Source: Massilia sp.
GTDB taxonomy: Bacteria > Pseudomonadota > Gammaproteobacteria > Burkholderiales > Burkholderiaceae_D
Assembly (NCBI GenBank): GCA_045810465.1
Contig: JBJMVW010000221.1
Span: 23,197-87,196 of the forward strand
Length of the DNA stretch: 64,000 bases
Direction: 5' to 3'
The translations under genes and the position numbers were made by a program. The notes below the pieces were generated by a model. It did no database searches. It worked only from the letters and a program-made list of their open reading frames with translations, and was not told the DNA's origin. Within the stretch, counting starts at the first letter, position 1; every line of letters starts with the position of its first letter. This document shows, one piece after another, positions 56,160 to 61,651 of this stretch.

Positions 56160-56536
56160 ACGAGGAAATAGATTAGCGCACTGATATTCGGATACGGCGG
56201 CGGGCGCCTGAAAACAATACGCCGTTTTATTGTCGATATTCTCACGGATAAACACAAATTCATAATATGACGGGAAAAGCAACGAAAATAATTTTATGCA
56301 CGGATGGCACCCCCGGCGTGAACTTTTTAATGTTTTAATGCTAATAGATTTTGATTTTCCACCAAAGGAAATCAGCTGTGTTTAGTTAATCGCCGCGCAT
56401 GGCACTTGAATAAACGCGCACCGCGACACGCATTATTAATTCCGACCCGCCCGCGCGCGACGAAAGAACCGGTTTGTGGCCGCAATGACTGGCTGGAAGT
56501 GGGGGCAATTGCTGATCGTCAGCCATATTTGCCCAA
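56160..56536. promoter_or_regulatory. AT-rich (~40% GC) intergenic region: divergent promoter region and compositional boundary
   Basis: 377 bp with a sharp GC drop relative to the ~68% flanks, between divergently transcribed operons. Confidence 0.4.
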
Positions 56537-58741
56537 TTGGAATACGATTACACATACGGTAAATATAATATGTCTGCTTTCATTAATAATTTGGTGAACG
56601 GCCGCTGGGCGCTGAGTTGCGCAAATGGGCAATACATTGGCACCGACCCATCCCAGGCAGATCCCTCCGGGAATCCGTACCTCGTGCCAGTTTCCACCCG
56701 CCGAACTGCGGCCTTCCTGCAATTCACAGTAGTTGAAACGGTCTCGCCGACGAATATCACCGTAACAATTAGTGTGCCGGCGCTTGGCCGCTATCTGGCG
56801 CTCGATTCTAACGGTTATCTGGTGTTCGCCGCGCTCAGTGGCACGGCCACCAGGTTTTCTACAATCGCCACCAGGTCGACCCAGGTGCAGATCGGCCGCG
56901 CCATCACCTCGATCGGCGGCCAAAGCATGACGTTCGATCCGGCCGTGAACCGTTTCTCGCTGGTCAACAACGCCAGCGGCCCTGACTCACGGTTCGGACT
57001 GGCGCCGTCGCTGCCGGCGGGGGCGCTGCTATGGAGTACAGGTTCGGCGAGCGCGCTCGTCGGCACTCCTTACGTGTATGCCGGCGCTGTGTTTGCGGTC
57101 GATCAGGGCACCTTGGTCAACTGCCACGACCTTCTCACTGGCGCGACCGTCTGGGAAGCGGGGGCGGGGCTGTCCGCGACCTGCCCCGTCGAGGTCAACT
57201 ACGCGCATGCGCTGGTGTTTTCGGGGGATTCGACCGGGCTGCTGCATGCCTTCGACCTGGACAGCGGCGCCGCGGCCTGGACGTTTCAATCCTCCGCCCC
57301 GGTCTACGCACGCCCGAGCGCCTACGTCGACACGCTGTTCATCCCGAGTTCCGACGGTGTGCTCTATGCGGTCGCCACCGCCACCGGCGTCAAGCGGTGG
57401 CAGTATCCGGCATCGGGAAATGTCACCGGCATCTTTTCGGCGCCCCAGGTGGCGGCCAACCGCGCCTTCTTCGGCGCCTGGGACAATCAGGTCCACGCGG
57501 TGGACACCGGCACCGGGCTGTCCCTGTGGTCGTACCAGGCCGGAGGCAAGGTCAACGGCGGGATCTCGCTCGACGCCAGCAGCTTGTACGTGGGCACCGA
57601 CACGAACCAACTATTAGCCCTGGACCAGGCCGATGGAACCGAGCGCTGGAGCCTGGCGATGGCCGGCATCGTGTCTGGCGCACCGGTCGTCGACAGCGGC
57701 CGCGTGTACGGCGGTTCGTTTGGCGGCGACTTCGTGTGCGTCGACGCAAGCGCCGGGACGGTCATCTGGCGCCGCAACCTCGACGCACCGATTCCCAGCA
57801 GTCCGGCGCTCGCCGATGGCGTGCTGTACTTCACCACCCTGGCGGGCACGCTGTACGCCCTCGACGCGACGTCCGGAGCGACACGCGCGAGCTACGAGCT
57901 GGGCGCGACCGCGAATGGATCGCCGATCGCGCTGTCTGGCGCCATTTACACAAGCGCTGGCTCAAAACTGTTCACGCTGAGCGAGGGCCTCGCGGCCGGA
58001 TTCAACCCATCCGATATGCTGGCACTGCTGATGCTGTCGAGCTGGTCGAACACGAGCGGCGGGAAGCTTCCGTCATTCGGCCAGTTGCCTGCAGGGTGGC
58101 AATCACTGCAGGCCTTCATTTCGCCAGGCATCACCTTCGCCTCGGGCGGGGTCACGCGGCTGCTCATGCCCGGCACGGACCAGTCAGTAGTAGCGCTCAC
58201 CTTCGGCACCAACATCGATGGGTTCCCAACCTATCTCGACACAAGCAGTTCCGGGTTGGTGCCGCTGCCGCTGAGCATCGGGGGGAGCGCAGCACCCGAT
58301 GGCCTGATGGTCAATGCGACCGTCTTGGCCAGCTACCTGGCAGTCCGCGCCACGATTCTTGCCGCGCTCTCGGGCAGTGGCCAGGAGCATGTCCGAATCG
58401 CCGGGATCGGCGGCGGGGGGACACTGGCGCTCCTTGCCGCGCTCGATCTGGCAACGCCTTCGGGGAAAGCCGGCATGCCAAGCATCACCAGCCTCGACGT
58501 GACCGCCTTCGGCAGCCCGCCGGTCGGCAACCAGGCCTTTGCCACCTATTTCGCGCTGGCCGTCCCTGCGTGCCGAAGGATACAAAACGTCGGCGACACG
58601 ACACAGGGCCTGTTGCCTGTCGCCTTAGGCTATGTGCCTGCCGGACAGGTCACGACGATCGGCGCCGACGGCGTTACCAACTCGTCAGCGATCGACCCCG
58701 GTTCCTTCCTCGGCTATCGGATCGGCTTGGTTGGCCGCTAG
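56537..58741 (+). CDS. Beta-propeller (PQQ/BamB-like repeat) protein with C-terminal lipase_3-like domain lacking the catalytic Ser (pseudo-lipase)
   Basis: Repeated ...G.VYA.D..TG...W motifs. C-terminus VRIAGIGGGGTLALLAALDLA aligns with IWIVGHSLGGALANLCALDLG of the next gene, but the GHSLG Ser is replaced by Gly. Low-GC 5' end. Confidence 0.6.
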   Translation: MEYDYTYGKYNMSAFINNLVNGRWALSCANGQYIGTDPSQADPSGNPYLVPVSTRRTAAFLQFTVVETVSPTNITVTISVPALGRYLALDSNGYLVFAALSGTATRFSTIATRSTQVQIGRAITSIGGQSMTFDPAVNRFSLVNNASGPDSRFGLAPSLPAGALLWSTGSASALVGTPYVYAGAVFAVDQGTLVNCHDLLTGATVWEAGAGLSATCPVEVNYAHALVFSGDSTGLLHAFDLDSGAAAWTFQSSAPVYARPSAYVDTLFIPSSDGVLYAVATATGVKRWQYPASGNVTGIFSAPQVAANRAFFGAWDNQVHAVDTGTGLSLWSYQAGGKVNGGISLDASSLYVGTDTNQLLALDQADGTERWSLAMAGIVSGAPVVDSGRVYGGSFGGDFVCVDASAGTVIWRRNLDAPIPSSPALADGVLYFTTLAGTLYALDATSGATRASYELGATANGSPIALSGAIYTSAGSKLFTLSEGLAAGFNPSDMLALLMLSSWSNTSGGKLPSFGQLPAGWQSLQAFISPGITFASGGVTRLLMPGTDQSVVALTFGTNIDGFPTYLDTSSSGLVPLPLSIGGSAAPDGLMVNATVLASYLAVRATILAALSGSGQEHVRIAGIGGGGTLALLAALDLATPSGKAGMPSITSLDVTAFGSPPVGNQAFATYFALAVPACRRIQNVGDTTQGLLPVALGYVPAGQVTTIGADGVTNSSAIDPGSFLGYRIGLVGR

Positions 58742-58747
58742 GCCCCG

Positions 58748-60137: not shown

Positions 60138-61481
60138 ATGCCTGGCCAAACTACCGTTTCAGTTGTCCCCATGCTTGACATATCCGACTCGATGCGGAGC
60201 GCGATGGGCATGGTCAAGATCGACGCGAAGGCGTTCATCCGATCGGCGCGGCCGAATGACCAGATAGCCGTCGTGGCATTCACCGACTCCTCCTCGGTCA
60301 TCTATTCAAGCAACGGGCAGATGGTGACGGTCAGCCAATCGCTCAACGAGACGGCGGCGGCGGCACAGGCAATCGAGGCGCTCACTACCGGGAACATGAC
60401 GAATATTGGCCAGGCCATTCAACAGGCGAACGGACTGATCGCCAGTGGGAGCGCATCGGTCAAGGCTTTCGTGCTGCTCAGCGATGGCATATCCAACAGG
60501 GGGCCGGACCCGACCAGCCAGCTCGGAACCACGCCTCCGTTGTACGTGGCGGGACTGGGAGCACACGTAGCGCAGAGCTACTTCCAGGCGATGATTGACA
60601 AGAACAGCGCCAGCCGCTATTACAACCAGCCGAATGCGTACCAGATGGCGCAAGTGTTCAATACGATTCGCGCCGCCTCGACGAGCGACATCGGGCTGAC
60701 CTCGAACAACACCTTGTCCTACACTGGCGCAGACTACGTACTGCAGCCGAATGTGATTGCCGGCGACAGCGACGAAGTGCAGATAAATGCGGTCTGGAGC
60801 GACCCCAACTACTACTACACCAGCGGCGATCCGAGCGGGTATGCAATCAATGTCGTGCTTATCGACCCCAACGGGGCGACCTCGCCCGCACGGCCGGTCG
60901 TCACGGACGCCGGCTATGTGATCTTCAACCTGAACAATCCACAGCCCGGCAGGTGGCAAACGCTGATCCAGTATTCGGTCCCGACGCAAATCTGGGGGAC
61001 CAGCGCTGGCTTCGAATTCGATACCCAGGTCAACCTGCAGGTCGATGCGCCAAAATTCCTCAAGGCTGGCGACACCTTGCGCGCCACCGCCATCGTGCTG
61101 GATGAAGGAAAACCGGTGGAAGGCCTGACGGTGCGCGCGCATATCAATCGACCTTCGATCTCGGTGGCGAACGCGCTCATCAAGCACGCGACGGCATTGC
61201 GCGGCGTCCGGCCCGATCCGGCGCTGCTCGAGGGCGGCGCCGACGAATCGACCGCAATCCTCGAGGCCTATCGGCGGCAGCAGGCGGGCAATGGCGACAT
61301 ACTCGCGACAATACCCTCGTCGATGATGCTGGCCGCGCAAGAGGACGGCAGCCATGCGCTGATGTTTGGACAGACGGCCGAAGCGGGTTCCTACAACGTC
61401 ACGTTGACCGTAACCGGGACCAGCTCCGCGACCGGTAAGCCGTTCAGTCGTACCAGGATGTTCAGCACAATCGTGCTGTAG
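60138..61481 (+). CDS. von Willebrand factor type A (VWA) domain protein
   Basis: MIDAS motif VVPMLDISDSM (DxSxS)...T...D. No signal peptide. Confidence 0.65.
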   Translation: MPGQTTVSVVPMLDISDSMRSAMGMVKIDAKAFIRSARPNDQIAVVAFTDSSSVIYSSNGQMVTVSQSLNETAAAAQAIEALTTGNMTNIGQAIQQANGLIASGSASVKAFVLLSDGISNRGPDPTSQLGTTPPLYVAGLGAHVAQSYFQAMIDKNSASRYYNQPNAYQMAQVFNTIRAASTSDIGLTSNNTLSYTGADYVLQPNVIAGDSDEVQINAVWSDPNYYYTSGDPSGYAINVVLIDPNGATSPARPVVTDAGYVIFNLNNPQPGRWQTLIQYSVPTQIWGTSAGFEFDTQVNLQVDAPKFLKAGDTLRATAIVLDEGKPVEGLTVRAHINRPSISVANALIKHATALRGVRPDPALLEGGADESTAILEAYRRQQAGNGDILATIPSSMMLAAQEDGSHALMFGQTAEAGSYNVTLTVTGTSSATGKPFSRTRMFSTIVL

Positions 61482-61564
61482 CGAGGATTCATGTGGTGGG
61501 CCGGTAGCCGTAAAGCAGGCGCCAGCGAGTGTTTGAGATATCGGCGACCGCGCCGCAACAGAAA

Positions 61565-61651
61565 TGGTGCCCGGAGCCGGAATCGAACCGGCACGCCCTT
61601 GCGGGCACGGGATTTTAAGTCCCGGGTGTCTACCAGTTTCACCATCCGGGC
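61565..61651 (-). tRNA. tRNA-Leu (anticodon TAA)
   Basis: Reverse complement GCCCGGATGGTGAAACTGGTAGACACCCGGGACTTAAAATCCCGTGCCCGCAAGGGCGTGCCGGTTCGATTCCGGCTCCGGGCACCA: 87 nt, long variable arm, anticodon loop CTTAAAA, 3' CCA. Confidence 0.85.

Follow-up and report, generated by a model that had tools for sequence, protein, structure and literature searches.

Within the 64-kb stretch of DNA analysed here (the window; 68.2% GC), which comes from a metagenome-assembled genome (MAG) of Massilia sp., three plus-strand genes that we call A, B and C form a compact cassette. Proteins annotated in this MAG, on a contig of 160,650 bp, are 100% identical to all three products. Together the genes cover 56570-61481, between a low-GC spacer and the 3′ end of a tRNA-Leu(UAA) gene. 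From their sequences, gene B is predicted to encode an intact class-3 lipase with a PLAT domain, gene A a beta-propeller protein ending in a dead version of the same lipase fold, and gene C a VWA protein with a metal ion-dependent adhesion site (MIDAS). Domain identities, motif conservation, gene linkage, gene fusions and genomic contexts were all established in this work. We tentatively favour the reading, held at a little below even confidence, that the cassette is a self-contained conflict module, directed against phages or other mobile genetic elements or acting by abortive infection, which would need no NTPase and would act inside the cell that produces it. What argues for this reading is a signature typical of conflict systems: swappable hydrolases, sporadic distribution, mobile carriage, conflict-gene neighbours, a predicted cytoplasmic location and atypical codon usage.

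Domain architecture of the cassette proteins

Protein B matches Pfam Lipase_3 with 67.4 bits (cutoff 22, E=1.6e-18), and its profile finds Rhizomucor lipase in the PDB at 1e-20. The catalytic triad, made up of S188 in the GHSLGG elbow, D246 and H283, is unchanged across 12 sequences. An earlier, first-pass annotation of the window had also assigned a PLAT domain to this protein. For the single window sequence that assignment stays below the Pfam cutoff (PF01477, 19.6 bits versus 23), but the family profile confirms the domain, matching the PLAT of Clostridium alpha-toxin at E=2e-8 and that of lipoxygenase at 4e-6, and PF01477 is precomputed for 8 B homologues. B therefore appears to be a class-3 lipase with an intact catalytic triad and a membrane- or lipid-binding PLAT domain, which agrees with the effector-like character that the annotation had ascribed to the region. 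Proteins of this kind are rare, with about 12 Lipase_3-PLAT relatives among 5.8 billion proteins. Two distant relatives, P0009 (L006 2102-6200) and P0012, are 656-670 aa long and carry an extra N-terminal domain of ~250 aa; in L006 the lipase gene is followed by one for a 653-aa alpha/beta-hydrolase-like protein, in place of the propeller and VWA genes.

Protein A gives Pfam matches to PQQ_2 (E=2.7e-38), Beta-prop_ACSF4 and Lipase_3 (1.1e-6; 29 bits with a cutoff of 22), the propeller being of the PQQ/BamB type. When the last 254 residues were used as a profile, hhalign aligned them with the lipase domain of B at 98.5% probability (E=3e-15), and the same domain profile matches Rhizomucor lipase in the PDB at E=1.4e-14. 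In the alignment of the two lipase domains, the A sequence G-I-G-G-G-G falls exactly on the G-H-S-L-G-G of B. The nucleophile serine is replaced by glycine in all eight A orthologues, down to 30% identity, G612, G614, G616 and G617 are invariant among them, and no conserved histidine follows the elbow. Because the serine-to-glycine exchange is invariant, no histidine is conserved and the profile matches that of B, the C-terminal domain of A is best described as a conserved pseudo-lipase, that is, a member of the Lipase_3 fold that is predicted to be a pseudo-enzyme and a degenerate paralogue of B. The first-pass annotation had also called it a pseudo-lipase, which GIGGGG in place of GHSLGG bears out. 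The first ~160 residues of A form a beta-rich domain, for which the PDB search returned only spurious matches to designed propellers at the domain boundary. Propellers of the A type are found elsewhere fused to CHAT, caspase and Ser/Thr kinase domains, while full-length A is represented by only six clusters.

Protein C matches Pfam VWA_2 with 36.9 bits (cutoff 27). Across 25 sequences reaching down to 33% identity, the MIDAS residues D14, S16, T88 and D116 do not vary, and at least 90% keep S18. The AlphaFold2 (AF2) model (pLDDT 86, pTM 0.82) places a VWA domain, a beta-sandwich, a helical insert and a second beta-sandwich in that order. The top Foldseek matches are 4fx5 and archaeal ArnB/Sec23-24-like proteins composed of VWA and beta-sandwich, at identities of 13-16% and TM-scores of about 0.3-0.37. 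C is accordingly predicted to be a MIDAS-competent VWA and beta-sandwich protein. It shares with the ArnB/4fx5 type the order of VWA followed by beta-sandwich, a layout found in protein-protein adaptors, but differs in its low identity, in its partners (those of ArnB being the FHA/zinc-ribbon protein ArnA and kinases) and in having a second sandwich and a helical insert. The beta-propeller, Lipase_3 and VWA domains named in the first-pass annotation are thus all matched in Pfam; its description of them and of PLAT as eukaryote-like was overstated, as all of these are common in bacteria.

A wider VWA family with exchangeable partners

A word-indexed search found 32 relatives of C, more than A or B have, and an exhaustive profile search with C extended this to 181 cluster representatives at E<=1e-30, most of them of ~445 aa and covered over their full length. 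The family includes MAGs of Gemmatimonadota and Lachnospiraceae. At the loci examined, the VWA gene lies directly downstream of a partner gene on the same strand; the exception is L034, in which no same-strand partner gene stands upstream of it. The identity of the partner varies. Besides the A and B lipase pair, we found a Peptidase_C25 (caspase-fold) protein without signal peptide at 8 loci, a 1191-aa protein combining Peptidase_C1 and a lectin at one locus, a 335-aa protein of no assigned family, and, in L028, an unassigned protein of the ~550-aa type (570 aa in this case) accompanied by a ~60-aa protein. The VWA module can also form the C-terminal part of a fusion protein whose other part is C25, an S8 subtilase (1200-1400 aa) or DUF6765; these fusions too lack signal peptides. 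Because such fusions act as Rosetta stones, the module is likely to work physically with an interchangeable degradative enzyme. We therefore regard C, on the strength of these sequence comparisons, as the constant core of a wider family whose partner enzyme is exchanged, rather than as the accessory protein that the first-pass annotation had taken it to be.

The layout of L028 recurs on a conjugative plasmid of Rhizobium leguminosarum (L044, NZ_CP071402.1), where it lies between IS66 copies, and the large partners of the two loci are 41% identical. In both (L028 6015-7982, L044 7153-8975), the ~550-aa protein has a conserved core, 'ADH[FY]L[ST]D.FSSGH.R.PRKEL...MHDEDC', and the gene pair is always upstream of the VWA gene. 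The ~550-aa partner has no match in Pfam, NCBIfam or the PDB. Two candidate assignments were considered for the 570-aa protein of L028: a zinc-dependent phospholipase C, suggested by an 'H..D...GH' motif, was rejected as it had no Pfam, NCBIfam or PDB support, and homology to DUF6765 was not found by BLASTP.

Some members of the VWA family depart from the common arrangement. In L024 (535-5111), two VWA paralogues (P0128 and P0118) flank one C25 gene and adjoin prophage baseplate and tail genes. An extra N-terminal helical domain of ~90 aa ('...ITP/AxxMLxxVxxxGYxxEESVLAI..YY...') precedes the VWA in L032 (3708-5312), L034 (6725-8248) and P0135. In the VWA fusion P0324, motifs resembling those of nitrilases/CN-hydrolases ('FPE', 'AICRD') can be read by eye in residues 1-460, a region in which Pfam finds nothing. 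In four loci from low-GC organisms (L022, L027, L031 and L033), VWA pairs of the C25 type or with an unassigned partner lie in or beside capsule or exopolysaccharide clusters, and in L027 the pair sits inside the polysaccharide cluster on the same strand. This placement may reflect either a functional link or hitch-hiking in a hotspot.

The lipase type of the system, A-B-C, keeps its gene order across about 10 distinct loci that reach down to 30-40% identity and have unrelated flanks; no fourth gene is conserved with it in these loci. The cassette is present on two JGI contigs (L001, of 621 kb, and L002). On a TARA ocean contig (L004) it lies among DDE transposases, a resolvase, ParB_N and DUF87 genes, and in L007 it stands beside a gene for a 1101-aa CHAT protein. 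In the isolate Brevundimonas sp. SL130 (L021), it is cargo between the two halves of a VirB/Trb type IV secretion system (T4SS) within an ICE (integrative and conjugative element), and is followed by Endonuclease_NS and patatin genes. In L025 it is carried on a T4SS element, where it adjoins an RHS toxin and the CD-NTase gene of a cyclic-oligonucleotide-based anti-phage signalling system (CBASS). An XRE/HTH_31 regulator is encoded directly upstream of the cassette in both L004 and L025. One copy, on a soil metagenome contig (L041 1077-2013), has decayed: A and B have lost internal stretches, and C contains frameshifts. Comparison of these loci suggests that A-B-C is a mobile unit, and the conflict-type neighbours seen across them comprise CBASS, RHS, CHAT and nuclease genes.

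A simple hydropathy scan, in which two exported proteins of the same window served as positive controls and both scored positive, detected no signal peptide or transmembrane segment in A, B or C, as the first-pass annotation had also noted for signal peptides. Read by eye, both the C25 partners and the VWA fusions have hydrophilic N-termini. These observations fit a cytoplasmic location for the cassette proteins and the protease partners alike.

Proposed mechanism and rival explanations

For the conflict module, we infer the complex, its trigger and its outcome as follows. In the resting state, lipase B would be kept inactive by complex formation, either with the dead paralogue carried on A, or with C by way of the MIDAS, or with both. 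The pseudo-lipase domain of A would pair with B in the manner of the plant EDS1-PAD4/SAG101 lipase-like heterodimers, and C would use its MIDAS metal to bind an acidic residue, located on either a partner or a protein of the invader; both the A-B heterodimer and this function of the MIDAS are drawn by analogy. The propeller and N-domain of A, the beta-sandwiches of C, or both, would recognise the trigger, which could be a protein of a phage or mobile element or a stress signal. B, once released or activated, would dock on the inner membrane via its PLAT domain and hydrolyse phospholipids, and the collapse of the membrane would then kill or arrest the cell. In the sister systems, the enzyme gated by this VWA module would be a protease.

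Among described systems, the nearest relatives in logic are the vWA-MoxR ternary systems, which are defined by a MoxR AAA+ ATPase together with a third component (VMAP, iSTAND or FtsH), couple a MIDAS-type vWA to variable effectors (caspase-like, alpha/beta-hydrolase) that are fused C-terminally to the vWA, can include beta-propellers, and show a sporadic phyletic pattern with a predicted conflict or cell-death role (Kaur, Burroughs, Iyer, Aravind 2020, eLife 9:e52696; PMC7159879). The likeness lies in the combination of a MIDAS vWA with variable degradative effectors, in the possible propeller, in the sporadic pattern and in the predicted conflict role. In contrast, the VWA proteins studied here have a fixed beta-sandwich C-terminus, and their effector is encoded by a gene of its own upstream or is fused to their N-terminus. 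No MoxR/AAA+ or other NTPase adjoins the VWA system in the locus gene tables or the scanned neighbours. Membership of the beta-propeller ternary class was rejected, as MoxR is lacking and so is a third component of the VMAP, iSTAND, FtsH or TPR/propeller kind.

Other comparisons concern the lipase branch. CBASS with the patatin-like CapV uses a cytoplasmic phospholipase effector whose presumed action is to break down the inner membrane of an infected cell. The cassette resembles such phospholipase-effector defence in its lipid-hydrolysing effector, mobile carriage and effector swapping, but has no CD-NTase or other signal-generating enzyme, and its lipase is of class 3 with PLAT and not a patatin. 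The profiles of A and of B both match EDS1, PAD4 and SAG101 chains, at the level of the lipase fold and more weakly than they match fungal lipases. As in the plant EDS1-PAD4 and EDS1-SAG101 pairs, two class-3-lipase-like proteins would be used together, one of them without a nucleophile; unlike the plant proteins, A and B have no EP domain, B has retained its complete triad and bears a PLAT domain, and the heterodimer would be a prediction from the likeness. With the PLAT lipid enzymes (Clostridium alpha-toxin, lipoxygenases, pancreatic lipase), B shares a catalytic domain followed by a C-terminal PLAT beta-sandwich, but its catalytic domain is a class-3 lipase, it is predicted to be cytoplasmic, and its gene stands in an operon with those for a pseudo-lipase and a VWA protein.

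Several results weigh against the conflict-module reading. None of 5027 PADLOC-DB v2.0.0 models matched A, B or C at E<=1, and PADLOC scans of the C25 partners, of distant VWA proteins and of neighbouring genes were likewise without a match. Relatives of C are absent from IMG/VR viral contigs and from the phage collection. At least four loci (those in or beside surface-polysaccharide clusters) are placed outside defence islands, and in the window itself the cassette is surrounded by ordinary metabolic genes. Lastly, the AF2 model of A, built from 6 sequences, has a pLDDT of 57 and is confident only in the propeller, being poor outside it.

The first-pass annotation had proposed delivery by a type VI secretion system (T6SS) or another contact-dependent pathway. 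In its general form this explanation makes B a secreted or contact-delivered (phospho)lipase toxin, Tle2-like or T4SS-delivered, with A and C as adaptors or chaperones and with rival bacteria or eukaryotic cells as the target, and we consider it improbable. The Lipase_3 fold is indeed used by T6SS effectors of the Tle2 type, with which the cassette shares a class-3 fold with GxSxG and the status of accessory genes; PLAT is present in the membrane-attacking Clostridium alpha-toxin; two cassette copies lie inside T4SS conjugative elements, the L025 copy adjoining the RHS toxin; and NCBIfam gives a faint match on the cassette to XopAP, an effector of the type III secretion system, which at E=0.035 is not significant. 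Yet the available gene tables of cassette loci list no VgrG, PAAR, Hcp or adaptor gene such as DUF4150, nor is there one among the 10 largest genes of the window, and the vgrG/hcp/paar linkage, periplasmic immunity (Tli) gene and secretion marker of Tle2-type systems are missing. Antibacterial lipase effectors need an immunity gene, and none bearing a signal peptide accompanies the cassette. The T4SS genes that were seen make up the mating machinery of ICEs, and T4SS genes are lacking from most loci. The C module pairs with or is fused to cytoplasmic C25 and S8 proteases that lack export signals, which favours a regulated intracellular effector over a secreted toxin.

An intracellular hydrolase could also serve a purpose other than conflict, such as remodelling of the envelope or its lipids, developmental autolysis or processing linked to polysaccharide or capsule, with the VWA protein as an assembly or localisation factor. 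This seems fairly unlikely to us. The VWA pairs in or beside polysaccharide clusters would suit it, as would the lack of any PADLOC match and the fact that ArnB and Sec23/24, which combine VWA and beta-sandwich, act as adaptors in assembly or regulation. The capsule loci, however, are themselves hypervariable hotspots, and the exchange of a lipase for a cysteine or serine protease is hard to square with one substrate. A housekeeping role would also sit poorly with the extremely sporadic spread that so few Lipase-PLAT relatives imply, with the lack of the cassette in the nearest congeneric species (Massilia terrae), and with the carriage of the A-B-C type on ICEs, a plasmid and segments flanked by insertion sequences (IS). 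That same carriage on ICEs, plasmids and IS-bracketed segments is what would be expected of an addiction or post-segregational-killing module that stabilises its mobile element, in which B would be the toxin and A, C or both the labile antidote; the pseudo-enzyme A is plausible as a stoichiometric inhibitor of B, and the decayed copy in L041 is in keeping with such a module. We hold this to be quite improbable, as no mobile element is left in the window and yet the three genes are intact with their motifs conserved, and as the proteins, with propeller, MIDAS and beta-sandwiches, are far bigger and more elaborate than typical antitoxins. The addiction reading also overlaps with that of abortive infection and is not clearly incompatible with it.

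If the conflict-module reading holds, the finding would add to the known defence or conflict systems a family that comprises at least 181 sequence clusters and lies outside PADLOC-DB v2.0.0, with a simple two-part logic in which a VWA adaptor is joined to a swappable hydrolase and neither NTPase nor nucleotide signal is needed. B would in that case be an uncharacterised PLAT-anchored class-3 lipase with built-in regulators, and the cassette would offer bacterial models both for pseudo-lipase/lipase pairs in immunity (cf. plant EDS1/PAD4) and for the gating of destructive enzymes by a MIDAS-type VWA (cf. complement factor B). Nothing specific was found in the papers searched on a defence pairing among vWA, lipase, propeller and C25, and the NTPase-free family of VWA-gated hydrolases, in which the lipase/pseudo-lipase/propeller cassette forms a rare branch, is apparently undescribed.

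A bolder hypothesis, which we offer as a speculation and think unlikely on present evidence, is that the VWA and beta-sandwich protein is a previously unrecognised, NTPase-independent switch for immunity or cell death. Capture of a ligand by the MIDAS would directly license an interchangeable executioner (a lipase, caspase-fold C25, subtilase or papain-like protease). Complement factor B/C2 works in a comparable way, its VWA MIDAS docking on the target and arming the attached protease. The lipase branch would add an active/dead pair like EDS1/PAD4 and a propeller as sensor, and would thus set a bacterial precedent for lipase-like heterodimers in immunity.

The tRNA-Leu site and locus layout

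The evidence favours horizontal acquisition of the cassette, as the first-pass annotation had proposed, and comes from codon usage, from a relative that lacks the cassette and from the recurrence of A-B-C with unrelated flanks. The GC content at third codon positions of A, B and C is 0.78-0.79, compared with 0.86 ± 0.03 in 29 other window genes (z about -2.2), and the codon-usage log-likelihood of each of the three is below that of all 29 background genes (z = -2.1 to -3.7). Presence and absence were judged against a single comparator, Massilia terrae JCM 31606, the only close relative obtained from a synteny scan of genome contigs. The two genomes have in common a frame of acylase, ParB-like, variable DNA, cytochrome c and molybdenum enzyme genes, with identities of 70% for the cytochrome c, 70% for the molybdenum subunit and 79% for the ParB-like protein, after which the acylase gene follows in both. 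Between its ParB-like and cytochrome c genes, M. terrae carries not the cassette but the same tRNA-Leu(UAA) gene and, over 4.2 kb, genes unrelated to those of the cassette (CPBP protease, MauG-like peroxidase, AraC regulator and VOC). A segment conserved in relatives with the same flanks and normal codon usage, which the annotation had named as the finding that would speak against acquisition, is thus not what the comparison shows.

The DNA of the two genomes is identical through the tRNA gene and about 20 nt of its promoter, and homology stops exactly at the 3′-CCA. The tRNA gene with this ~20-nt promoter is inverted relative to the flanks between the window and M. terrae (L011 9654-9740), and the variable DNA is on the 3′ side of the tRNA in both Massilia genomes despite the inversion. 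The ParB-like protein (61829-62635, 268 aa, 'DGHNRY') resembles mobile-element cargo, yet its gene is resident and lies outside the islet, since M. terrae has it in synteny at 79% identity. As the annotation had reported, the ORFs beside the cassette include no integrase, and no repeat of the tRNA 3′ end (att) was found within 3 mismatches anywhere in the window; a search for direct repeats flanking the cassette gave nothing meaningful. The cassette would accordingly have landed at a variable site 3′ of tRNA-Leu(UAA), from which neither integrase nor att repeat has survived. Even if the defence reading should be wrong, the locus would remain a clear instance of a small islet that lacks an integrase and lies at the 3′ end of a tRNA.

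Coordinates of the features are collected in Table 1. ORF calls bear out the gene positions of the first-pass annotation and its spacings of 6 nt between A and B (36 nt with the other choice of start) and 46 nt between B and C; ARAGORN and Rfam agree with it on a minus-strand tRNA-Leu(TAA) whose 3′ end faces the cassette, 83 nt from the C stop. An Rfam scan of 54-64 kb found the tRNA only. The start of A is placed at ATG 56570 and not at the upstream TTG (ORF from 56537), because its orthologues have a common N-terminus there. For B, ATG 58778 is the start in the database entry, and an in-frame GTG at 58748 is also possible. The long form of C is taken as correct because the N-terminal beta-strand ahead of the MIDAS is conserved.

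The boundary stretch upstream of A, put at ~40% GC by the annotation, has a GC content of 46.8% at 56161-56536 with a minimum of 43%; it does hold the lowest value of any 377-bp stretch in the window, in which the first percentile of GC is 54%. The spacer is probably the promoter or regulatory region of the cassette, or else junction DNA. A scan for sigma-70 promoters and terminators gave only chance-level matches. In other loci, the regions upstream of A are likewise depleted in GC, and no common motif is evident among them.

Table 1. Features of the cassette and its flanks, in window coordinates
Feature	Position	Strand	Description	Basis
AT-rich spacer upstream of A	56161-56569	no strand		GC profile
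Gene A	56570-58741	+	723 aa; beta-rich N-domain of no assigned family, PQQ-type beta-propeller, predicted dead class-3 lipase domain	
A N-domain	56570-57049	+	beta-rich; no solved match	
A beta-propeller	57050-57979	+	PQQ-type	Pfam
A class-3 lipase domain	57980-58738	+	predicted catalytically dead	Pfam, hhalign, PDB profile
A degenerate nucleophile elbow	58403-58420	+	G-I-G-G-G-G versus G-H-S-L-G-G	orthologue alignment, hhalign
Gene B	58778-60091	+	437 aa from ATG; class-3 lipase and C-terminal PLAT (predicted)	
B class-3 lipase domain	about 59060-59647	+		Pfam Lipase_3
B GHSLGG (S188)	59333-59350	+	invariant	
B D246	59510-59521	+	invariant	
B H283	59618-59632	+	invariant	
B PLAT domain	about 59690-60088	+		family profile versus PDB
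B PLAT motif GTDAD	59753-59767	+	invariant	
Gene C	60138-61481	+	447 aa; predicted VWA with full MIDAS and two beta-sandwich domains with helical insert	
C VWA domain	60138-60683	+	predicted full MIDAS	MIDAS conservation, AF2
C MIDAS D14-x-S16-x-S18	60177-60191	+		alignment of 25 sequences
C beta-sandwiches	60684-61478	+	two, with helical insert (predicted)	AF2 model
tRNA-Leu(UAA)	61565-61651	-	synteny breakpoint	ARAGORN and Rfam (56 bits)
Left flank, outside cassette	54706-56037	-	multi-haem cytochrome c subunit, molybdopterin dehydrogenase operon	Pfam Cytochrome_CBB3, Cytochrom_C
Right flank, outside cassette	61829-62635	+	ParB-like protein, 268 aa	79% identity to M. terrae gene

Elsewhere in the window, an unusual cluster of long proteins was observed, comprising a 1082-aa protein with a PBP transpeptidase domain at its C-terminus only (23506-26754, plus strand), a Ser/Thr kinase fused to an FGE-sulfatase domain (32770-35121, plus strand) and a 780-aa protein with an FtsW/RodA domain at its C-terminus only (42947-45289, minus strand).

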